DNA from: Candidatus Komeilibacteria bacterium
GTDB taxonomy: Bacteria > Patescibacteriota > Patescibacteriia > UBA1558
Assembly (NCBI GenBank): GCA_048538235.1
Contig: JBLYPX010000001.1
Location: forward strand, 787,011-851,010
Direction: 5' to 3'
Length of the DNA: 64,000 nt
Each line of letters opens with the position of its first letter. The stretch's first letter is position 1. The notes under the pieces were generated by a model. That model saw only the letters and a list, made by a program, of their open reading frames with translations, had not been told where the DNA came from and searched no databases. The translations under genes were made by a program, and so were the position numbers. This document shows, piece by piece, positions 15,824-32,165 of this stretch.

Positions 15824-17209
15824 ATGCTAACAAATCAATTGTGGGACGCTGTACTTGGCGAACTAGAACTTACTATTTCAAAAGCAAACTTTACTACATG
15901 GTTTAAAAATACTTTTATCCATTCTGTTGACGACAATAGTATTGTAGTTGGGGTTCCTAATGCTTTTACAAAAGCTTGGCTTGAAAACAAGTACCACGAT
16001 CACATCTTAACTGCTTTAAACAAAAGTAGTCAGGGAAAAATTGATTCTGTTGTATATAAGGTTGCATCAAACAAAGAGCAAAACCCAGAGCAAATTAAAA
16101 ATCATGTAGCTAGTGCTAATGGAGAGAAAGAAGAGGTTGAAAACACTTCTACCGTAGAAGAACCTGTAAGGCCTGCACAAAATAATTTTAATTTAAACCC
16201 AAAGTATACTTTTGAAACATTTATTGTTGGTAAGGGTAATGATTTGGCTACAGCTGCTGCTAATGCAGTGGTTAATAAACCAGGGGAAGTATATAATCCC
16301 TTGTTTTTATATGGTGGTGTTGGTCTTGGTAAGACTCATTTATTACAAGCTATCGGAAATGCTCTTCTTGCTAAGGATCCTAAAATTAAAATTGTATATT
16401 TAAATACTGAAAAATTTGTTAATGATTTTATTAACTCCATTAAGAAAGGAACGACTGATGAGTTAAAAAAATATTACCGTACTGTTGATGTTCTTTTAAT
16501 AGATGATATTCAATTTATTGCTGGCAAAGAACAAACTCAAGAAGAATTCTTTCACACCTTTAACGAATTACACCAAAAGAATAAACAAATTGTAATGACG
16601 TCAGATAGACCACCAAAGGCTATTGCAGAGGTTGAGCAACGTTTAATATCTAGGTTTGAGTGGGGAATGATTGCAGATATTGGTGTGCCAGATATGGAAA
16701 CAAGATACGCGATTCTAGAATCTAAATGTCATGAAAAGGGTATTTCTCTATCACCAGATATAATTTCTTATGTGGCAGAGAATATACAAAATAATATTAG
16801 AGAATTAGAAGGCGCATTAAATAGAATAATAGCCTATCAACAGTTAAATAACGCTGAAATTACGCTTGAATCGGTTCAAAATGTATTAGGCTCATTATCT
16901 TTAAGTGCAAAGAAAAGTGGTTTAACTCCTAAAAAAATAGCTGCTAAAGTTGCTGACTTCTATGATATTGCTGTAAGTGATTTAATGGGTAGTAGTAGAA
17001 GAAAAGAGTTAGTCTTTCCAAGACAAATAACTATGTGGTTGTTAAGAGAAGAATTAAAAAGCTCTTACCCATCTATTGGACAAGAGCTTGGTGGAAGAGA
17101 TCATACTACTGCTATACACGCTTGTAATAAAATTACTGAACAAATTAAGAACGATAGTAAAACAAAAAGTGATATTGAATTAATAAGACAACAACTTTAC
17201 GCTTCATAA
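15824..17209 (+). CDS. dnaA: chromosomal replication initiator DnaA
   Basis: 461 aa. Walker A GGVGLGKTHLLQAIGN, sensor motifs, C-terminal DNA-binding domain (RDHTTAIHA). Confidence 0.95.
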   Translation: MLTNQLWDAVLGELELTISKANFTTWFKNTFIHSVDDNSIVVGVPNAFTKAWLENKYHDHILTALNKSSQGKIDSVVYKVASNKEQNPEQIKNHVASANGEKEEVENTSTVEEPVRPAQNNFNLNPKYTFETFIVGKGNDLATAAANAVVNKPGEVYNPLFLYGGVGLGKTHLLQAIGNALLAKDPKIKIVYLNTEKFVNDFINSIKKGTTDELKKYYRTVDVLLIDDIQFIAGKEQTQEEFFHTFNELHQKNKQIVMTSDRPPKAIAEVEQRLISRFEWGMIADIGVPDMETRYAILESKCHEKGISLSPDIISYVAENIQNNIRELEGALNRIIAYQQLNNAEITLESVQNVLGSLSLSAKKSGLTPKKIAAKVADFYDIAVSDLMGSSRRKELVFPRQITMWLLREELKSSYPSIGQELGGRDHTTAIHACNKITEQIKNDSKTKSDIELIRQQLYAS

Positions 17210-17468
17210 ATTGTTAATAAGGTTGTTTATTAAAAACTAATCTTAAGTTAACAACCACACCTAATGTGTTAATAAAAAAACGGTTATACACAGACATAGA
17301 ATTTAAAGTAAAACTTAATAACAGATAATAAAATTTTCCCTAACTGTTTGTTAACTTTCAAAACCATCTCTAAACCGTTTGTACATAATATAATAATAGA
17401 CCTTATCAACATATTAACAGCCCCTATTATTATAACTAAGTAAAATATAATTAATTAATAATATAGTA
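17210..17468. promoter_or_regulatory. dnaA-dnaN intergenic AT-rich region with DnaA-box-like 9-mers (candidate oriC / unwinding element)
   Basis: TTATACACA at 17284-17292 and TTATCAACA at 17407-17415. Long AT runs. Confidence 0.5.
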
Positions 17469-18569
17469 ATGAAATTTATATGCACAAGAGAAAATTTGAA
17501 TAATGGTTTAAGCGTTGTAAACCATTTAGCTTCTCACAATGCAAACCTACCAATTCTAAATAATGTTTTAGTAGATGCTAAAGACGGAATAATAACTTTA
17601 GCTACAACAAATTTAGAAATTGGGATTAAGGTTGTAGTGAGAGGGAAAATAGAAACAGAAGGTTCTTACACTGTGCCAGCTCGTTTATTTTCAGATTTTG
17701 TTTCATTACTGCCAAATGAAAACGTAGATATAGATTTAGAAACAGATGGTTTAAATGTACGTTGTAAAAATTCACAAACACAAATTAAAGGAATGCTGTC
17801 AGAGGATTATCCTTTAATTCCAGATGTTAGTTCAGATAAAAAGGTTTCCATAGATATGCAAGTTTTTAAAGAAACTTTAGGACAAACAGTTTTTGCAGCA
17901 ACGCTAGATGATAATAGACCAGAAATTAGTGGTGTGTTTTTTAACTTCAAAGGTCAAGATCTTGTGGTGGCAGCAACAGACAGTTATCGTTTGGCTGAAA
18001 AGAGAATTAAAGTAGAAAATTCTATTGATCAAAAAGTTATTATACCTTTAAAAACTCTACAAGAACTTAGTAGAATTTTAGCAAACACTACAGAAAAGAA
18101 AATAGAAATATATTTAAATGAGAACCAAATAGCTTTTAGTTGTAATAATATAGTTTTAACTTCGCGTTTAATTGATGGAAATTACCCAGATTATGAACAA
18201 ATTATACCCACGGATGAAAAGACAGTAACAAAGGTTGGTGTTAGTGAGTTAGTTAAAGCTATAAAAGGTGCTTCATTGTTCTGTAAAACAGGGATAAATG
18301 ATATAAAAATGACTATTATACCTTCAAAAAATGAAGTGGTTATCCTGTCAACAAACAGTGGATTAGGAGAAAATATTACCAACATAAAGGCAGATATTAA
18401 GGGCGAAGAGGTGGAAATAGTCTTTAATTACCGCTATTTACTTGATGGCTTAAATAACTTACAATCAGAGCAGGTAATAATAAAAACCTCCAATCAAGGT
18501 GCTCCAGGGGTTTTTGTGCCGGACAACAAAGAAGGATACCTATACATTGTGATGCCAATCCGGCAATAA
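17469..18569 (+). CDS. dnaN: DNA polymerase III beta sliding clamp
   Basis: 366 aa, three-domain beta-clamp pattern. N-terminal MKFICTRENLNNGLSVVNHLAS. Confidence 0.9.
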   Translation: MKFICTRENLNNGLSVVNHLASHNANLPILNNVLVDAKDGIITLATTNLEIGIKVVVRGKIETEGSYTVPARLFSDFVSLLPNENVDIDLETDGLNVRCKNSQTQIKGMLSEDYPLIPDVSSDKKVSIDMQVFKETLGQTVFAATLDDNRPEISGVFFNFKGQDLVVAATDSYRLAEKRIKVENSIDQKVIIPLKTLQELSRILANTTEKKIEIYLNENQIAFSCNNIVLTSRLIDGNYPDYEQIIPTDEKTVTKVGVSELVKAIKGASLFCKTGINDIKMTIIPSKNEVVILSTNSGLGENITNIKADIKGEEVEIVFNYRYLLDGLNNLQSEQVIIKTSNQGAPGVFVPDNKEGYLYIVMPIRQ

Positions 18570-25463: not shown

Positions 25464-27041
25464 ATGTTAGTGCGTAATAGTTTCCAAAAAATAATACATT
25501 TTATCAAGGATCATAGATTAAATTATTTATTGGTTTTTTTATTAGTCTTTTTGCTAATGTCTTGGCTACAAGCAGGTCCATATTTTCTAGGAACAGAATC
25601 TTTTTACCATGCTAAGATGGTGGAAAGTTTAGAAAATTCGCTAAAATTAGATAATTTTTCTTGGTTACAATCTACTAATTATTCTAATAGTTTTACAGAT
25701 AGTAATTGGCTTTATCATATATTTTTGAGTTTGTTTGTTGGTGTTTTGCCAACTTTTTTAGTTATAAAAATATTCGCAGCGCTTTTTTCAGCGCTACTAG
25801 CTTTGTATGTATATTATTGGTTAACAAAACACAATGGATTTCTTCCGGGGCTATTTGTGCTCCTTTTATTTTCAATTATTCCGTTTGCTATTAGTATTAA
25901 TAACTTGGGTGCTATTAGTGCGGCCTTGTTTGTTTTGCTGGTTGGTTTAGAGTTTGTTGTGAATTATAGGTATTGGCAACTAGGCGTTCTTAGTATCACA
26001 TTAACCCTCCTAACAGGACAATTTATTTTCTTATTTGTCATCGCTTTACTCTGGCTTTTAATTGAGCTGATATACAACAAGTATAAACTAGATATGTTCA
26101 GAGAAGGATTGTCGAGTATTAAAGATTGGGTACTGAGAAAGTTGGGGCTACGTAGTAAAACTAGTAGAAGGAAATGGTTGATTTTAATATTTTGTTTGTT
26201 TGGCATAGTGATTGGCTTAATGGTTAATCCGTATTGGCCAGAGAGCACGTCTTTTTATAAGGAGCTTATTGCTAACAAAAACACAAACACGTTCTCAGGA
26301 GTATATAATAGCTTTGTTAGTCTAATTTCATCTGCCAAGCTATTGTTTATAATATTTTTGTCATCAGTATTCAGCGTTGTTTATTTGAATAAAAGAATTG
26401 TTAAACTTACAGCCTTTTTATTACTACTAACATTTGTATTTGTTTTAAACACCTTGCTGTTTAGTTGGGGAATAGAGTTTACATACTTGATTATTATTTT
26501 AACAACTTCACTTATACTAAGAGATTGTTTTGGAAGTCTTGGTTTGTGGTCTGCCTGGAATAGCCATAAAAGAAACACTAATTTAGTTAGAGCTGGAATT
26601 GTTATAGCAACTATTATTATTTTGTTTATACCCCTGAAAGGGTACTATGTTCTAAATAAAGATGGTGATTTTTACCCATTGAATTATATGCAAGAAGCAG
26701 CAGAGTGGTTATATTATCATATTCCAGATAATGCGCTGGTTATTAATACAGATTACGAGGATTGGGCTCCTTTGTTTTATTATAATGACAATAATAGATA
26801 CTGGTGGGGTTTGAGTAATAACATTATGAATAATGCTCAAAAATCAAGCAGGAATGACCTGATTGGTATTATAGATGGTTCTAGTAATAAAAACCCTTAT
26901 GCCCTATTTAAAGGCAGTTTTAAAGCAGATTACCTATTGGTAAATAGTCGTAGAAATATACTGAATAGTCGCTTAACAGACAATATATACTTTTCATTAG
27001 TATATAGCGATGAGGATTGCTATATATATGAAATACAATAA
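25464..27041 (+). CDS. large polytopic membrane protein, GT-C-fold glycosyltransferase-like (ArnT/PMT/YfhO-like), 12+ TM
   Basis: 525 aa. First extracytoplasmic loop contains GTESFYHAKMVESL (acidic DE-like motif typical of GT-C enzymes). Many TM helices, then about 150 aa soluble C-terminal domain rich in N/Y/W. Convergent with the pilin operon. Confidence 0.4.
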   Translation: MLVRNSFQKIIHFIKDHRLNYLLVFLLVFLLMSWLQAGPYFLGTESFYHAKMVESLENSLKLDNFSWLQSTNYSNSFTDSNWLYHIFLSLFVGVLPTFLVIKIFAALFSALLALYVYYWLTKHNGFLPGLFVLLLFSIIPFAISINNLGAISAALFVLLVGLEFVVNYRYWQLGVLSITLTLLTGQFIFLFVIALLWLLIELIYNKYKLDMFREGLSSIKDWVLRKLGLRSKTSRRKWLILIFCLFGIVIGLMVNPYWPESTSFYKELIANKNTNTFSGVYNSFVSLISSAKLLFIIFLSSVFSVVYLNKRIVKLTAFLLLLTFVFVLNTLLFSWGIEFTYLIIILTTSLILRDCFGSLGLWSAWNSHKRNTNLVRAGIVIATIIILFIPLKGYYVLNKDGDFYPLNYMQEAAEWLYYHIPDNALVINTDYEDWAPLFYYNDNNRYWWGLSNNIMNNAQKSSRNDLIGIIDGSSNKNPYALFKGSFKADYLLVNSRRNILNSRLTDNIYFSLVYSDEDCYIYEIQ

Positions 27042-27059
27042 ATTTAGGTAACAAAAAAA

Positions 27060-27080
27060 CTGCTCGTCTGAGCAGTTTTT
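27060..27080. terminator. bidirectional terminator CTGCTC-GTCT-GAGCAG flanked by A8 and T5 between the GT-C-like gene and the pilin operon end
   Basis: Read directly. Confidence 0.65.
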
Positions 27081-27094
27081 ATATTTAGTTTAAT

Positions 27095-27565
27095 TTAATT
27101 TATCACACAACGACTCTCGTCTAGACCATTGGTCCAGCAATGGAATCCACTAGGACAATCTGAATCAGAACTACATTCATTACCACCACCCCTAGTTGAA
27201 TTGTATACATTTGTTATTACAAAGTCAGTTATTACATAGGCTGCTAAAACTATGATTAAACCTATAATGGCGTTTATAATTCTTTTTTTAGCTGAGTCGA
27301 TAGCGGTTGAATTACCACCAGCTGTCATCCATTGAAAACCAGACCATATAATAAGGATAACAAATACAAGACCTAAAAAGCCAAGTAGAATTTGTATAAA
27401 ATTTATTACTATATTTTCTACATCTGTTGATGTGGTAGATCCGGTAACACCTTCTTGAACATAATCAAATTCACTGTTCACCAGGTCGCCTAAATCTGCC
27501 TGAGCTAAAGGTGTGAACAGAACAAAAGAAAATATAATTAAAGTAAGAAGGATAATTTTTTTCAT
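27095..27565 (-). CDS. VirB2/TrbC-like (T4SS-type) pilin paralog P1, subfamily A, with Cys-rich C-terminal module
   Basis: 156 aa. Signal peptide (…PLAQA/DLG), variable acidic/T-rich segment, then the conserved hairpin core IQILLGFLGLVFVILIIWSGFQWMTAGGNSTAIDSAKKRIINAIIGLIIVLAAYVITDFVI. C-terminal GGGNECSSDSDCPSGFHCWTNGLDESRCVIN has 4 Cys. Confidence 0.65.
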   Translation of the reverse strand: MKKIILLTLIIFSFVLFTPLAQADLGDLVNSEFDYVQEGVTGSTTSTDVENIVINFIQILLGFLGLVFVILIIWSGFQWMTAGGNSTAIDSAKKRIINAIIGLIIVLAAYVITDFVITNVYNSTRGGGNECSSDSDCPSGFHCWTNGLDESRCVIN

Positions 27566-27566
27566 A

Positions 27567-27944
27567 TTATTGTACAGAGTCTATTACTTTATCTAAAACA
27601 AATTCAGTTATAGCAAAGGCTGCAATTACTATAATTAAACCTATAACGGCGTTTATAATTCTTTTCTTAGCTGCATCTATTACAGTTGAGTTGCCACCAG
27701 CCATCATCCATTGGTACCCAGAAACTATTATTAATATTATAAAAATTATTGATAGCAAGCTAAGAGCTATTCGAATAATATTTACTATAATGTCTTGTGG
27801 GGTTGCCGGCTCATAGTCTGCGCCGAGAGCAGCGGTTTCAACTAACTCATTTTTTGCATTTATATCGTCTTGAAGAGAGGCTAATGAAACTAAAGGAGTG
27901 GCTATTGTTAGTAATATTAAAAATGTTAAAAGTAATTTTTTCAT
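27567..27944 (-). CDS. VirB2/TrbC-like pilin paralog P2, subfamily A
   Basis: 125 aa. Signal peptide, variable region, SGYQWMMAGGNSTVIDAAKKRIINAVIGLIIVIAAFAITEFVL. Confidence 0.65.
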   Translation of the reverse strand: MKKLLLTFLILLTIATPLVSLASLQDDINAKNELVETAALGADYEPATPQDIIVNIIRIALSLLSIIFIILIIVSGYQWMMAGGNSTVIDAAKKRIINAVIGLIIVIAAFAITEFVLDKVIDSVQ

Positions 27945-27949
27945 AATAT

Positions 27950-28339
27950 TTAATGTCTTCCTCCTAAGGTGAAAGCTTTTTCTATAACAAAGTCAGTTAT
28001 ACCAAATACAGCTAAGGTTATAACTAAACCAATAATTGCATTTACCATACGTTTTTTAGCTGAATCAATGGCAGTAGAGTTACCACCAGCTGTCATCCAT
28101 TGATAGCCAGAAATTAAAATAAGAATAGTAAATATTACCCCAATAAAACCAAGTGCTATCTGAATTGCATTACCGACAATAATGGCCGGATCTTTCACGC
28201 CTGGAGCCTCTCCCGCGCTATTATAATATGCTTGACCACCAGTTTGTTTGAGGTTTTCTCCTATTGATGTAGCTCCAACGGGCAAGGCAACGCTAATTAG
28301 CAGGAAAATAATTATTAATTTTATTATATTTTTGTTCAT
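27950..28339 (-). CDS. VirB2/TrbC-like pilin paralog P3, subfamily A
   Basis: 130 aa from the internal ATG at 28337-28339 (MNKNIIKLIIIFLL…). The ORF-track start at 28378 would overlap P4. Core SGYQWMTAGGNSTAIDSAKKRMVNAIIGLVITLAVFGITDFVI. Confidence 0.6.
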   Translation of the reverse strand: MNKNIIKLIIIFLLISVALPVGATSIGENLKQTGGQAYYNSAGEAPGVKDPAIIVGNAIQIALGFIGVIFTILILISGYQWMTAGGNSTAIDSAKKRMVNAIIGLVITLAVFGITDFVIEKAFTLGGRH

Positions 28340-28343
28340 AATT

Positions 28344-28769
28344 TTATTGAACTTGCTGTGTTTCAAGGCTGCCACCACCAGTACTTATTAATATTTGGTC
28401 TGTTACAAACCAAGTGATACTATATGCAGCTAGGGCTATTACCAAGCCAATTGTTGCATTAATCATGCGTTGCTTAGCTTTTCCAATAGCTTCACTATTA
28501 CCACCAGCCATCATCCACTGAAAGCCAGATATGATGATTAGTATCAAGAAAACTGTACCCAAGAAGCCTAATATAATTTGTATAAAGTTACCAATTCTAA
28601 CTGGCAGTGGAGTTTCGTCACCTGTGTTAAAACCAGACTGTGTTCCAAACTCTGAATAACTATCTATTGGAGAACCTTCTGTAGGGTTTAATACATCTGA
28701 ATTAATAAGAGCGGCACCAGCAGGTATAGCTATAATCATTGCCAATAAGATGGATATAAAAAGTTTCAT
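28344..28769 (-). CDS. VirB2/TrbC-like pilin paralog P4, subfamily A
   Basis: 141 aa. Core SGFQWMMAGGNSEAIGKAKQRMINATIGLVIALAAYSITWFV. Confidence 0.65.
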   Translation of the reverse strand: MKLFISILLAMIIAIPAGAALINSDVLNPTEGSPIDSYSEFGTQSGFNTGDETPLPVRIGNFIQIILGFLGTVFLILIIISGFQWMMAGGNSEAIGKAKQRMINATIGLVIALAAYSITWFVTDQILISTGGGSLETQQVQ

Positions 28770-28770
28770 A

Positions 28771-29163
28771 TTATATATTAGCTACACTTGTTATCACAAA
28801 GCTTGTTAAAGCATAGGCTGCTAAAACAACTATTAAACCTATGGTGGCATTTATAAGTCTTTTTTTTGATGTATCAATAGAGCTAGAATTACCACCAGCT
28901 GTCATCCACTGAAAACCAGAAACTATTATTAATACTAAGAAAAGGGTTCCTATTAAACCAAGAGCTATTTGTACTACAGAAGCCACAATTTGCTGTGGAT
29001 TTTTGTAGCCAGCTTCGTCCTTGGTGGTAAACCCAGCTTCACCTGCTGTTGTTTCCAGCCCAGTTTCTATAGCTAAAAGAGGAGCGGCTATTATAACTAA
29101 AAAAGAGGTTACAATAAATATAACCACCAATAAAGCACTTAAATTGTTTATAGATACTTTCAT
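28771..29163 (-). CDS. VirB2/TrbC-like pilin paralog P5, subfamily A
   Basis: 130 aa. Core SGFQWMTAGGNSSSIDTSKKRLINATIGLIVVLAAYALTSFVI. Confidence 0.65.
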   Translation of the reverse strand: MKVSINNLSALLVVIFIVTSFLVIIAAPLLAIETGLETTAGEAGFTTKDEAGYKNPQQIVASVVQIALGLIGTLFLVLIIVSGFQWMTAGGNSSSIDTSKKRLINATIGLIVVLAAYALTSFVITSVANI

Positions 29164-29180
29164 ATATATAGTTTAAGCTC

Positions 29181-29215
29181 AGGCGGACCATATAAATATG
29201 ATCCGCTATAGTCTA
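29181..29215 (-). other. intergenic RNA hairpin between pilin paralogs P6 and P5 (GCGGAUCA-loop-UGGUCCGC), no U-tract
   Basis: 8-11 bp stem in the 62-nt P6-P5 spacer. Could be a processing/stability element or a partial attenuator separating the two subfamilies. Confidence 0.35.
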
Positions 29216-29225
29216 GACTATATTT

Positions 29226-29597
29226 TTAAGCTTGAGTTGCGCCTTGAATGTTTGTAATAACAAATGAGGCAATAGCGTAAGCAGCTAAAATGATGATCAA
29301 ACCGATAACACCATTAATAATAAACTGTCTACCTTTCTTAACTCTGTCTTCATTACCACCAGCTGTCATCCACATGAATCCACCGATTAGAATCAAAATA
29401 ACAGCGATTAAGCCTAAGAAGCCCAAGATGATAGAGATGATGTTATTTACAATATCTTTAACACCAGCATCACCTAAGCCTAAAGCTTGTGCGTCTTCCA
29501 ATCCTAAGTCAGCTGTTGCCATACTTAGCATAGGAGCTGCCATGAAGGCAACAATCATAACGATTGCGAATAATTTTTTGTTCATAAGTTTTTTCAT
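29226..29597 (-). CDS. VirB2/TrbC-like pilin paralog P6, subfamily B, with own promoter and strong SD (candidate major subunit)
   Basis: 123 aa from the ATG at 29595-29597 (MKKLMNKKLFAIVMIVAFMAAPMLSMATA/DLG…), preceded by AAAGGGGGTGA SD. Core GGFMWMTAGGNEDRVKKGRQFIINGVIGLIIILAAYAIASFVI. The ORF-track start at 29621 is a TTG with no SD. Confidence 0.65.
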   Translation of the reverse strand: MKKLMNKKLFAIVMIVAFMAAPMLSMATADLGLEDAQALGLGDAGVKDIVNNIISIILGFLGLIAVILILIGGFMWMTAGGNEDRVKKGRQFIINGVIGLIIILAAYAIASFVITNIQGATQA

Positions 29598-29651
29598 AAT
29601 GTCACCCCCTTTCGTGGGCAAATTAATTATTATTATGTTAACTATAGTAAT

Positions 29652-29680
29652 ATTATACTATAAATTATCAATTTTAACAA
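29652..29680 (-). promoter_or_regulatory. internal operon promoter for P6: -35 TTGTTA (29675-29680), 17 bp, -10 TATAAT (29652-29657)
   Basis: Minus-strand read: TTGTTAaaattgataatttatagTATAAT. Sits in the 60-nt P7-P6 spacer. Confidence 0.5.
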
Positions 29681-29681
29681 T

Positions 29682-30032
29682 TTAGTTAGCAGGAATTATT
29701 TCAAAGATAAAGGCTAGAATGCTATAAGCTGAGAATATAATTACAATGCCTAAAGTAGCCCAAATAAGAGTATCTTTACCCTTTTTTATCTTGTCCATGT
29801 TGCCAGAAGCTGTCATCCACATGAATCCACCGATAATGAAATATATTAAAGCTATTGTTCCGGTTAGCCCCAGTACAGCTTTAATTATTAACCCAACTAG
29901 TTCCTGAGGACTCTCTGTGGTCAAAGGGTTTGTAATATGAATAGATTCTTCAGTGGTTTCTGCGTGAACAGATAAGGCTGTAAACAGTAGCAATGAAGAT
30001 GTTCCTATGTAGTTTATTATTTTTTTAATCAT
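29682..30032 (-). CDS. VirB2/TrbC-like pilin paralog P7, subfamily B
   Basis: 116 aa. Signal peptide …SVHA/ETT. Core GGFMWMTASGNMDKIKKGKDTLIWATLGIVIIFSAYSILAFIF. Confidence 0.6.
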   Translation of the reverse strand: MIKKIINYIGTSSLLLFTALSVHAETTEESIHITNPLTTESPQELVGLIIKAVLGLTGTIALIYFIIGGFMWMTASGNMDKIKKGKDTLIWATLGIVIIFSAYSILAFIFEIIPAN

Positions 30033-30047
30033 ATATTTAAATAATTA

Positions 30048-30656
30048 TTATTCAGATTGACAGCAAACAATATTGTTTGGACCAAAACACATATTACTTA
30101 CAATTGTCCCCTCGACACATTGCGTAGAGTTTCTGCAGGCATAACCTCCACCCTCTGGCGGAGTAGCATCACATTTTTGTACACAGTCATTATTTATACA
30201 TATGCCCAAACCACTTCTACAAGAATCATTTTCTTGAAGACCATCGCAAGGTCCAGCAACTTGAGTGTTGGTGTTTTCTAATGACCTGGTAGAGATAGAA
30301 ACTAAAATTGTTTGAACAATTAACCACGCGCCCATCACTATAACAATTCCAATCACAGTATTTACCATTATATCTTTACCCTTTTCAATTTTTCCCGATT
30401 TACCACCAGATGTTAGCCACATAATTCCACCGAATATGAAAAAGAGTAGAGCAAAGCTACCAAGTATACCTAATCCCCATTTGCTTAAGACTACAAAGGT
30501 GTTAAAACCCTGATCAAGAGAACAGCTACCGTCTGCAATACAAGAGTCTTCGTAGTCTGTTGATCCTTCAGGGTAGAAACTTGAGTCTTGCAAAACTGAA
30601 GCACTAGCAAGAAGCGGTGTGACAAGTAAAATTAGAACAATTATTAATTTTTTCAT
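30048..30656 (-). CDS. VirB2/TrbC-like pilin paralog P8, subfamily B, with 66-aa Cys-rich (11 Cys) C-terminal module
   Basis: 202 aa. Signal peptide. Variable region with 2 Cys. Core GGIMWLTSGGKSGKIEKGKDIMVNTVIGIVIVMGAWLIV. C-terminus PCDGLQENDSCRSGLGICINNDCVQKCDATPPEGGGYACRNSTQCVEGTIVSNMCFGPNNIVCCQSE. ATGA overlap with the upstream SBP gene. Confidence 0.6.
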   Translation of the reverse strand: MKKLIIVLILLVTPLLASASVLQDSSFYPEGSTDYEDSCIADGSCSLDQGFNTFVVLSKWGLGILGSFALLFFIFGGIMWLTSGGKSGKIEKGKDIMVNTVIGIVIVMGAWLIVQTILVSISTRSLENTNTQVAGPCDGLQENDSCRSGLGICINNDCVQKCDATPPEGGGYACRNSTQCVEGTIVSNMCFGPNNIVCCQSE

Positions 30657-32050
30657 TCTGGTTTTTTAATTGTTTGATTTATTTTTCGAACTATTAAGTC
30701 TAGTAAATCCATAGTTGTAAACTCACTAGAAACATTATGATATGCCTGATAAATTAAATCTTCCATCGCTGAATTTGCTTCACTGTAGTCATAGCCACGA
30801 TACCAGGCTCTAGCGTTTAGGACTTGGTCAGCAAACACACCAACACTTTCGCTTTGTATTTGGTTGTTTATTAAAGATAAAAGTGCAGTTGGTTGTTCAC
30901 TAGCTTCTAAATATGCCATAGTTACTTCTGGTGTTGTAGTTACAAATCTTATAAAATCCCAAGCTGGTTGAATTTTATCTTCAGAAGAGCCAAAATATGT
31001 AGATAATGCCCAGAAATCTGCAAAATTAACCTCTTGTACATCTGGTACGGTTTGTAGCATTGGTGCAATATTGAAGTTTAATTTAGGAGATTGAGCTTTA
31101 ATTATTGGTGCCTGATAAGAGTAGCCAATAAAGTAAGCAAGTTTTCCAGAAGTAAACATTTCTAATGCATCTGGTTTATCTTCAGACCAAGAGTATACTT
31201 CCTTAGTTGGATCAATAAAGTTTACAAAAAATTCTAGAGCATCTTTACCAGGATAAAACTTTCCCTGTCCAGGAGGAGGTTGGTTGAATGTTACATTATT
31301 ATATTCATCTGTCATTTGAGCACCATTTTGCATCATTAGCAGTGCTAGTATATCTGTTGCTCTTGGAATGTTTGTGGCAGAGCCTAATGCAATTCCAGCT
31401 TGTTGAATATTTCCATTGCCATCAAAAGTTGTTAATTCTTTTACTTGCTCAATTAATTCAGCCCAAGTAGTAGCGGGTAAAGGTATTTTAGCGCTGTTTA
31501 GTAAATCGCGATTATAATATAGAGCTAAACTATCAACACTTAAAGGTAGGCCATAAATTTGATTATCTATTACCACTTGATCATAGACAGCTGGAACAAA
31601 TAACTCTTGAACCTTTTTTGGAGTAAGGCCCGCAACTGTTTTAATAACAACAGTTGGTTCTTGTTTAATAGTGCCCTTCATTTCAACATAAGGAATACGC
31701 ATAGATTCAGGCATTTCCTTTATCAAACTTTGGTATTGCCTAATCTGTGTAGAAGGGATAGAAAATATTTCTGGACCTCTTTGTTCTAGCCAAGCTTGCG
31801 TTAACTCGCTTTCATATTCTTCGTATCTGAACTTTCTATACTTAATCTTAATGTTTGGGTGTATTGTCTGGTAAGCATTTATTAAACTAGCAACGTCTGC
31901 TGTTTCTTCCCAAACACCCCACCAATTTAATTCAACAGGTTTGTATAGTTGTTCGACCTCACTACTTTGTGAGAATTTACAACCAAAACCCATTAGTGGA
32001 AGTGACACCAAGATTAAAGTAAGAATAGATAATTTTGTTTTAGATAGCAT
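30653..32050 (-). CDS. extracellular solute-binding lipoprotein (ABC transporter SBP family 1, sugar/MalE-like), orphan: no permease or ATPase adjacent
   Basis: 465 aa. Lipoprotein signal LILVSLPLMGFGC. MalE-like two-lobe pattern (…YRGYDYSEANSAMEDLIYQAY…). Translationally coupled to pilin P8 (stop/start overlap ATGA). Confidence 0.65.
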   Translation of the reverse strand: MLSKTKLSILTLILVSLPLMGFGCKFSQSSEVEQLYKPVELNWWGVWEETADVASLINAYQTIHPNIKIKYRKFRYEEYESELTQAWLEQRGPEIFSIPSTQIRQYQSLIKEMPESMRIPYVEMKGTIKQEPTVVIKTVAGLTPKKVQELFVPAVYDQVVIDNQIYGLPLSVDSLALYYNRDLLNSAKIPLPATTWAELIEQVKELTTFDGNGNIQQAGIALGSATNIPRATDILALLMMQNGAQMTDEYNNVTFNQPPPGQGKFYPGKDALEFFVNFIDPTKEVYSWSEDKPDALEMFTSGKLAYFIGYSYQAPIIKAQSPKLNFNIAPMLQTVPDVQEVNFADFWALSTYFGSSEDKIQPAWDFIRFVTTTPEVTMAYLEASEQPTALLSLINNQIQSESVGVFADQVLNARAWYRGYDYSEANSAMEDLIYQAYHNVSSEFTTMDLLDLIVRKINQTIKKPE

Positions 32051-32165
32051 AGTAATTTTTAATTAAAACTAAGTAAATTATACAATTTTATAGGTGATTT
32101 GTAAAACAAAGACCTGATTAAGAAAATACTATATAATACATATATTATTATTAACATATATAATT

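Follow-up and report, generated by a model that had tools for sequence, protein, structure and literature searches.

Tandem arrays of 2-11 genes for VirB2-type pilins, the pilin family of type IV secretion systems (T4SSs), have been described in Patescibacteria, occasionally near dnaA, and Southlakia epibionticum depends on one such array for viability or growth, in that it is essential there (PMC12102498, PMC10633639, PMC12857230). In about 40% of assemblies the pilin genes lie away from virB4 (PMC12102498). Here we describe an array of this kind in a Candidatus Komeilibacteria bacterium: a minus-strand tandem of eight pilin genes, P8 to P1, at positions 27095-30656 of a 64,000-nucleotide stretch of contig JBLYPX010000001.1, which we refer to as the window. 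P8, the operon-proximal pilin gene, and P1, the operon-distal one, encode proteins with Cys-rich C-terminal modules, and we consider it probable that both are modular minor subunits of a Patescibacteria VirB2-type pilin set which display disulfide-stabilised extracellular binding or contact modules. The published arrays (PMC12102498, Quinonero-Coronel et al. 2025; PMC10633639, Wang et al. 2023) resemble this one in family, in their divergent tandem paralogs and in a chromosomal location near dnaA, which lies about 10 kb away here. They differ in that they have been described as sets of small variable pilins, for which host-range versatility or antigenic variation has been suggested, whereas the array described here shows fixed positional orthology and has no virB4 near it. 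VirB2 arrays as such are therefore known, but neither Cys-rich appended modules nor an upstream solute-binding protein (SBP) gene is mentioned in the array papers that we searched (PMC12102498, PMC10633639, PMC12857230), and a full-text literature search found no paper on Cys-rich or disulfide modules of VirB2/T4SS pilins in the candidate phyla radiation (CPR).

Two other systems invite comparison. The modular type IV pilins PilB and PilC of Streptococcus sanguinis (PMC8179133) likewise carry a grafted functional module that a short or flexible linker connects to a small pilin module, and are minor subunits with proposed tip-exposed binding. Type IV pilins differ in having a class III signal peptide, a single N-terminal helix, PilB/PilC-type assembly and vWA or lectin grafts (IPR012902). 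The signal peptides of P8 and P1 are of the classical Sec type (ending in LLASA before SV and in LAQA before DL, respectively), and both proteins have a two-helix hairpin; since a class III signal peptide and a single helix are absent from both, they are analogues and not members of the modular type IV pilins. The VirB5/TraC minor pilins, the tip adhesins of Gram-negative systems, are alike in proposed role, as low-abundance exposed subunits that give contact specificity. They differ in being soluble helical proteins with no sequence or fold relation to P8 or P1, and they have not been reported in monoderm or Patescibacteria systems (PMC12857230).

The product of P8 is 100% identical to the NCBI entry 'MAG: pilin [Candidatus Komeilibacteria bacterium]', which is encoded on an 860-kb contig. 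Its parts are given below, with TM1 and TM2 denoting the two transmembrane segments, aa amino acid positions or lengths, AF2 AlphaFold2, and pLDDT the predicted local distance difference test score.

30048..30656, minus strand: P8, modular pilin, 202 aa, 12 Cys (PF18895, 4.1e-10, 40.0 bits against a threshold of 26.6).
30600..30656, minus strand: Sec-type signal peptide, aa 1-19, MKKLIIVLILLVTPLLASA (hydrophobic segment 4-22, modelled helix 2-22; cleavage site predicted from an AxA motif).
30522..30542, minus strand: N-terminal Cys-x5-Cys loop, CIADGSC, aa 39-45, just before TM1 (both Cys kept in 13/13 orthologs).
30294..30500, minus strand: pilin core, aa 53-121, comprising TM1, the basic loop TSGGKSGKIEKGKD and TM2 (Pfam match at aa 58-117; hydropathy, charge and AF2 helices).
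30249..30293, minus strand: flexible linker, aa 122-136 (pLDDT <50 at residues 122-134; 35.6% pairwise identity, the least conserved region).
30183..30248, minus strand: first part of the tail, aa 137-158, C-x8-C-x6-C-x4-C, modelled beta-hairpin (strands in both models; Cys invariant in orthologs).
30060..30173, minus strand: 6-Cys unit of the tail, aa 162-199, C-x11-(GY)xC-x5-C-x9-C-x7-CC (recurs in other CPR pilins and in non-pilin proteins).

The tail cysteines occupy positions 137, 146, 153, 158, 162, 174, 180, 190, 198 and 199, and the N-terminal pair positions 39 and 45. The original prediction had given P8 a 66-aa tail with 11 Cys plus two Cys near the N terminus; the tail sequence and the N-terminal pair are as described, and the tail count is 10, for 12 in all. 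With a background Cys frequency of 0.59% in the window's long open reading frames (ORFs), the binomial probability of such a composition is 8e-12 for the P8 tail and 1.6e-5 for that of P1. Structure prediction, which had been proposed as a check on the C-terminal modules, returned a confident fold for the isolated P8 tail (mean pLDDT 90.2), in which a beta-hairpin is followed by a short helix and then by two strands that form a sheet and run up to the vicinal CC. The full-length model (pLDDT 72.9) contains two long helices in the core, at residues 47-81 and 87-121 with pLDDT 76-90, followed by the low-confidence linker at 122-134 and then the same folded tail. In both models the hairpin strands fall at tail residues 19-22 and 25-28, corresponding to residues 151-154 and 157-160 of P8.

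P1 carries a smaller and different module.

27095..27565, minus strand: P1, modular pilin, 156 aa, 4 Cys (PF18895, 2.3e-10).
27107..27175, minus strand: 4-Cys unit, aa 131-153, CSSDSDCPSGFHCWTNGLDESRC, C-x5-C-x5-C-x9-C (sub-threshold match to TIGR04201).

The four cysteines, at 131, 137, 143 and 153, were counted correctly at the outset, and the length of 30 aa then assigned to the module has to be replaced by 26 aa if counting starts at the first Cys, or by about 39 aa if everything past TM2 is included. The unit follows the motif C-x2-D-x-D-C-P-x-G-F-x-C...C. It shares the core C-x2-D-x-D-C-x2-G-x2-C with TIGR04201 (Myxo_Cys_RPT), a repeat of secreted proteins in Myxococcales, and differs in that only one copy is present, carried by a pilin of another phylum, and in that it scores below the 25-bit cut-off of that model (19.8 bits for full-length P1, 23.7 bits for the isolated tail). 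Nine of 13 related units match TIGR04201 at E<=1. Other Pfam Cys-rich families gave only sub-threshold matches to the P1 tail: WAP (19.6 against 20.8 bits), Lustrin_cystein, Squash, Dickkopf_N and one EGF family. The closest homologs of P1 divide into proteins of 155-166 aa with the tail and proteins of 127-128 aa without it.

All 12 cysteines of P8 are invariant in 13/13 orthologs that are 46-100% identical to it and were drawn from independent assemblies (NCBI, JGI, ENA and Logan). Average identity among these orthologs is 71.8% in the membrane core, 43.5% at the non-Cys positions of the tail and 35.6% in the linker. Invariant cysteines among otherwise divergent tail residues are what a constant disulfide framework with a changing surface would produce, and such a combination suggests a function in binding or contact. 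The same data bear on whether the tails are real. The genome is metagenome-assembled, and Cys-rich extensions of this kind could in principle be assembly or frameshift artefacts or chance read-through past a pilin stop codon. The P8 tail, however, is retained by orthologs from independent assemblies with every Cys in place down to 46% identity, it folds with a pLDDT of 90, and P1-type tails occur in at least five independent sequences. The tails thus survive the test that had been set for them, and an artefactual origin, which we regard as vanishingly improbable, is essentially excluded.

The location of the modules relative to the membrane can be read from charge. Those paralogs in which three hydrophobic segments are detectable share one layout, consisting of signal peptide, acidic N-extension, TM1, basic loop, TM2 and C-extension, with 0-2 K/R against 3-7 D/E in the N-extension and 3-4 K/R against 1-2 D/E in the loop. 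With acidic N- and C-extensions and a basic loop, the positive-inside rule predicts the TM1-TM2 loop to be cytoplasmic and both termini to lie outside. This is also the established arrangement of VirB2/TraA-type pilins. In other family members Cys modules are found at the N or the C terminus and never in the loop; together with the charge distribution, this supports the extracellular C-termini deduced in the original prediction.

Disulfide bonding within the modules is likewise probable. The Cys-rich members of the syntenic arrays described below have even Cys counts (4, 12, 12, 12, 16 and 18), and among 120 homologs of P1, of which 89 have no Cys, the 10 with at least four Cys have an even number in 10/10 cases. 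These counts, and the 12 invariant cysteines of P8, are consistent with disulfide-stabilised modules. The high Cys density might instead reflect cytoplasmic zinc or iron-sulfur sites, a reading favoured by the fact that CPR bacteria are mostly anaerobes lacking obvious Dsb systems, none of which is encoded in the window. It is contradicted by the positive-inside rule, which puts the tails outside, and by the absence from them of CxxC...CxxC or His-containing metal motifs, while the vicinal CC and the even Cys counts are typical of disulfide domains. Moreover, units of the same type follow N-terminal signal peptides and fill giant secreted proteins with LysM and Ig-like domains. Metal binding is on these grounds highly improbable and, like an artefact, essentially excluded.

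A profile of the whole P8 tail, searched against 1.84 billion representative proteins, recovered only 13 proteins at E<=0.001, most of them through the C-termini of T4SS_pilin proteins. The 6-Cys unit recurs more widely. It is present as two tandem copies in P0016 and P0149, as one extra copy in the first pilin of locus L004 and as an N-terminal copy in P0020. Outside the pilins it repeats in P0143, a protein of 2251 aa with LysM and Ig-like domains (5 matched stretches), and in P0147, a protein of 590 aa with 10 copies separated by Pro/Ser linkers; P0151 contains 14 matches to a unit resembling the whole P8 tail. The P1-type unit is C-terminal in the CPR pilins P0026, P0040 and P0138, occurs three times in P0119, is N-terminal in P0085, and is found in P0143 as well. 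Some very large secreted proteins are therefore made up for the most part of Cys-rich units, and P0143 (L008 2146-8901) draws on both the P1 type and the 6-Cys type alongside its LysM and Ig-like domains. The units are portable cassettes, grafted onto either extracytoplasmic end of a pilin and used also in giant surface proteins.

Neither cassette could be placed in a known family of small disulfide-rich domains. No Pfam family covers the 6-Cys unit, and the P8 tail matched no Cys-rich family at E<=1 and did not match TIGR04201. A word-index search with the 6-Cys unit alignment over 5.8 billion sequences yielded 138 candidates, none of them significant, and the sequence clusters of the module-bearing proteins bear no informative names. 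Foldseek comparison of the tail model with the PDB gave nothing at E<1; ADAM disintegrin/Cys-rich domains, anthopleurin-B, a tick carboxypeptidase inhibitor and hBD4 appeared at noise level, the last three at E=5-9. Membership of the knottin, EGF-like or defensin-like families, against which a check of the modules had been proposed, was not found in Pfam, profile-profile, PDB-sequence or fold searches, and leads to WAP and clip domains failed as well. A separate proposal, which derives the first half of the P8 tail from a P1-type unit by divergence, is unsupported (hhalign probability 1.5%).

The lead to beta-defensin and clip modules came from the Cys spacing. Beta-defensins follow the spacing C-x(4-8)-C-x(3-5)-C-x(9-13)-C-x(4-7)-CC. 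In the 6-Cys unit of P8 the first gap, of 11 residues, lies outside this range and the other gaps fit; the copies in P0147 and P0020, with C-x6-C-x5-C-x9/12-C-x6/7-CC, fit fully and share the terminal vicinal CC. Pfam Defensin_beta_2 gave marginal matches in 2/24 copies, and the PDB sequence of Grass matched at residues 31-50 with E=7. There is, however, no significant profile or fold match: the profile-profile (hhalign) probability is below 5%, and the CPR unit is acidic, not cationic. We reject homology to beta-defensins and clip domains and retain only the resemblance.

In an alternative reading the tails are cleavable pro-regions or cargo, cut in the linker during maturation and freed as disulfide-rich peptides that act as antimicrobials, signals or protease inhibitors on the host bacterium. 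C-terminal processing is established for RP4 TrbC and Agrobacterium VirB2, the linker between TM2 and the P8 tail is modelled with low confidence and poorly conserved, and the 6-Cys spacing superficially recalls beta-defensins and clip domains, with the noise-level matches listed above. The linker nevertheless contains no conserved cleavage motif, the beta-defensin comparison stays below 5% in profile-profile alignment, and the P8 tail (4 K/R against 9 D/E) is unlike the cationic defensins. Modules placed N-terminally, right after the signal peptides of other pilins, and repeated in giant surface proteins fit tethered display better than release. We judge release of the tails to be quite unlikely.

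The pilin identity of the scaffold is borne out for the whole array: P1-P8 all score above the gathering threshold of Pfam PF18895, T4SS_pilin (27.7-40.8 bits against 26.6), and are therefore of the VirB2/TrbC-type family. P6 and P7 also pass the cut-off of TrbC, PF04956 (27.9 bits). The six paralogs between the modular ones had been described as lacking Cys-rich modules, and P2-P7 in fact contain no Cys at all.

29682..30032, minus strand: P7, plain pilin, 116 aa, 0 Cys, 'NPLTTESPQELVG' type, always second in the array (PF18895 and TrbC; positional orthologs 52-66% identical).
29226..29621, minus strand: P6, plain pilin, 0 Cys, likely true start 29597, giving 123 aa (NCBI product on the same contig, 123 aa, P0107).
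28771..29163, minus strand: P5, plain pilin, 130 aa, 0 Cys (PF18895).
28344..28769, minus strand: P4, plain pilin, 141 aa, 0 Cys (PF18895).
27950..28378, minus strand: P3, plain pilin, 0 Cys, likely true start 28339, giving 129 aa (NCBI product on the same contig, 129 aa, P0052).
27567..27944, minus strand: P2, plain pilin, 125 aa, 0 Cys (PF18895).

In the ORF list P3 begins at an upstream GTG, which creates a 35-nt overlap with P4, while an upstream TTG opens P6; ATG codons at 28339 and 29597 look like the correct starts and give the lengths of the NCBI products. When a profile of the pilin core was compared with PDB sequences, VirB2 of A. tumefaciens (8cue) was the sole entry at E<=10, with E=3.3, and Foldseek with the full-length P8 model retrieved generic helical hairpins only, all at E>1. 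Elsewhere in the family, two full T4SS_pilin hairpins are fused in tandem to give proteins of 229-249 aa with four TM helices (P0033-P0039, P0042, P0045; L006 8001-8750).

The array is preceded on the same strand by an SBP gene and followed by a hairpin.

30653..32050, minus strand: SBP gene, orphan solute-binding lipoprotein, 465 aa, lipobox LMGFGC, opening the operon (Pfam SBP_bac_8 7.8e-24, SBP_bac_1 5.3e-19).
32077..32105, minus strand: best promoter-like site upstream of the SBP gene, TTTACA-17-TATAAT, 11/12 matches (a consensus match only; the number of such sites in the region is not above shuffles).
27055-27080, no strand assigned: hairpin with symmetric A-run, 11-bp stem and T-run, flanked by the stop codons of P1 and of the convergent gene and probably acting as a bidirectional intrinsic terminator at the end of the operon.

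The stop codon of the SBP gene and the start codon of P8 overlap as ATGA, an arrangement of translational coupling, and the hairpin, AAAAACTGCTC-GTCT-GAGCAGTTTTT, is perfectly symmetric. Because of this overlap, the promoter-like site upstream of the SBP gene and the hairpin after P1, the SBP gene and P8-P1 look like one operon. No ABC permease or ATPase gene was found near the SBP gene in the window. Immediately downstream of the array lies a convergent gene (25464-27041, plus strand) whose 525-aa product is a polytopic membrane protein that matches no Pfam family, and a counterpart of 522-533 aa occupies the same position in L002, L003 and L004. The window also carries dnaA/dnaN, rpoB/rpoC, recA, ftsK and polA and is therefore core chromosome. 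The dnaA/dnaN genes (15824-18569) are about 10 kb from the pilin operon (27095-32050), which fits the published origin-proximity of Patescibacteria T4SS components.

The neighbourhood is syntenic in three Komeilibacteria-like genomes (L002, L003 and L004), with the conserved order FtsK, HTH, RecA, Polysacc_synt, Wzy, SBP, 8-9 pilins, the membrane protein of about 525 aa, PGI, YebC and RuvC. Pilins at the same position are 41-78% identical in L002 and L003, with the best match at the same ordinal, and 33-54% identical in L004, where the correspondence is weaker; paralogs within the window genome share 13-41%. The array is therefore an old, ordered set of distinct subunits; a recent or hypervariable expansion would not show this. 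In all three syntenic loci the first gene is Cys-rich (12, 12 and 18 Cys), and the 4-Cys tail of the last gene is present in L003 and L004 and absent from L002. The Uhrbacteria genome L005 shows a matching array layout, and there too a 'NPLTTESPQELVG'-type pilin is second. The only copy-number change in the syntenic arrays is local duplication of a P6-type pilin (L002 9111-9912, an array of 9 genes, and L004 5881-6740).

To extend these comparisons, one genome per GTDB species was scanned for relatives of the P8 core, which yielded 38 loci, nearly all from Patescibacteria (Komeili-, Uhr-, Falkow-, Woese-, Gottesman- and Saccharibacteria). Combined with loci found earlier and the window, and with duplicates dropped, they form a census of 43 loci in which ORFs were called and pilins identified with the core hidden Markov model. 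In 26/43 loci from several CPR classes, the window and L002-L007 among them, the array directly follows a same-strand SBP gene, mostly of about 456-470 aa. A Cys-rich pilin, defined by at least four non-signal Cys, comes first after the SBP gene in 19 of these 26 and second in 4 more, a frequency that is biased upward because the loci were chosen by P8-core similarity; SBP linkage played no part in that choice. The highest Cys total in any first pilin is 32. Restriction of Cys-rich modules to the terminal genes is therefore lineage-specific: they are widely kept on the operon-proximal gene, whereas among the census loci only the window, L003 and L004 have the distal P1-type tail, and in L007, L011-L014 and L018 several internal genes per array carry N- or C-terminal Cys modules.

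Further features of the surveyed loci may be recorded. A gene of the NTP_transferase family (~290 aa) lies directly upstream of the SBP gene or of the array in L004 (2349-3221), L005 (1144-2019) and L007 (2489-3364), and in L007 type IV pilus genes (N_methyl, PilX_N) are found just ahead of it. Many metagenome-assembled records titled 'uncultured Gammaproteobacteria' or 'uncultured Pseudomonadales' contain typical CPR SBP-plus-pilin arrays, and their labels look wrong (L015-L017, L020, L025-L027, L029, L033, L034, L036, L040, L041, L045 and L046).

The close association with an SBP gene raises the question of whether the array forms a filament at all. The pilin-like hairpins could serve as membrane anchors or oligomeric rings which, with the SBP, capture or import host nutrients, with the Cys-rich heads as docking parts. 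The ATGA coupling of the SBP gene to P8, the recurrence of the linkage in 26/43 loci across several CPR classes, the absence of an ABC permease/ATPase or T4SS gene nearby, and the fact that a pilus is unobserved for Patescibacteria T4SSs (PMC12857230) all speak for such a complex. P1-P8 nonetheless match a pilin family whose characterised members polymerise, pilin genes adjoin virB4 in 1135/1948 Patescibacteria assemblies (PMC12102498), and eight conserved, distinct paralogs fit the logic of major plus minor subunits. We therefore regard a complex without a filament as unlikely.

Our preferred interpretation is that the operon would specify an orphan SBP followed by eight anciently diverged, positionally conserved VirB2/TrbC-like pilins of a T4SS-type pilus. 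P2-P7 would be its plain subunits, each consisting of a membrane hairpin of two helices preceded by a signal peptide and a short acidic N-extension. In P8 and P1 the same hairpin would act as a carrier which, through a flexible linker, holds a small disulfide-stabilised module outside the cell. P8 would combine the Cys-x5-Cys loop that precedes TM1 with a 10-Cys tail in two parts, the beta-hairpin and the 6-Cys unit, and P1 would carry a single 4-Cys unit, the heads having been taken from a pool of cassettes that also serves giant surface proteins. Their most likely role would be to present a rigid, protease-resistant surface for binding or contact with a host cell, an envelope or a ligand on low-abundance minor pilins, and they would thereby confer specificity on an otherwise featureless helical filament or membrane complex.

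Several observations weigh against this interpretation. Pilus formation has never been observed for Patescibacteria arrays (PMC12857230), and structure searches with the tail and with whole P8 produced no significant match. No gene for VirB4, VirB6, VirD4 or VirB8 is present in the 64-kb window, so that it is family membership and published work that connect the array with a secretion apparatus. With respect to disulfides, many CPR bacteria are anaerobic, and a search of the window for Dsb, VKOR and thioredoxin-like exported oxidoreductases found none; its redox genes are a cytoplasmic-type peroxiredoxin and a thioredoxin-reductase-like gene only. The manner in which the census loci were selected, by likeness to the P8 core, belongs among these points.

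A tip or adhesin role, as first suggested for P8 and P1, is one that we only infer. The conserved operon-proximal position of P8, and the absence of VirB5 from monoderm systems (PMC12857230), make a role as cap, initiator or adhesin attractive. Carried further, P8-type pilins might be the VirB5-equivalent of the monoderm Patescibacteria T4SS pilus: a dedicated subunit found throughout the phylum, whose head caps or initiates the filament and docks on the host while the pilus, with the coupled SBP, functions in contacting the host and capturing nutrients and not in exporting DNA or effectors. The 6-Cys '(GY)xC...CC' unit would in addition represent an unrecognised bacterial disulfide-rich fold family common to pilins and giant CPR surface proteins. 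We offer this combined proposal as speculation and think it improbable as a whole.

In the single species for which this has been examined, epibiotic growth requires the Patescibacteria pilin array. Pilins of the P8 type are positionally conserved members of these arrays with a folded head that is invariant in Cys, variable in surface and predicted to be extracellular, and they provide a testable handle on what the arrays build and what they touch; the regular coupling of arrays to an SBP gene provides a second. Our results also define two small disulfide-rich cassettes that lie outside current Pfam families, and extend the idea of the modular pilin from type IV pili to pilins of the VirB2 type.

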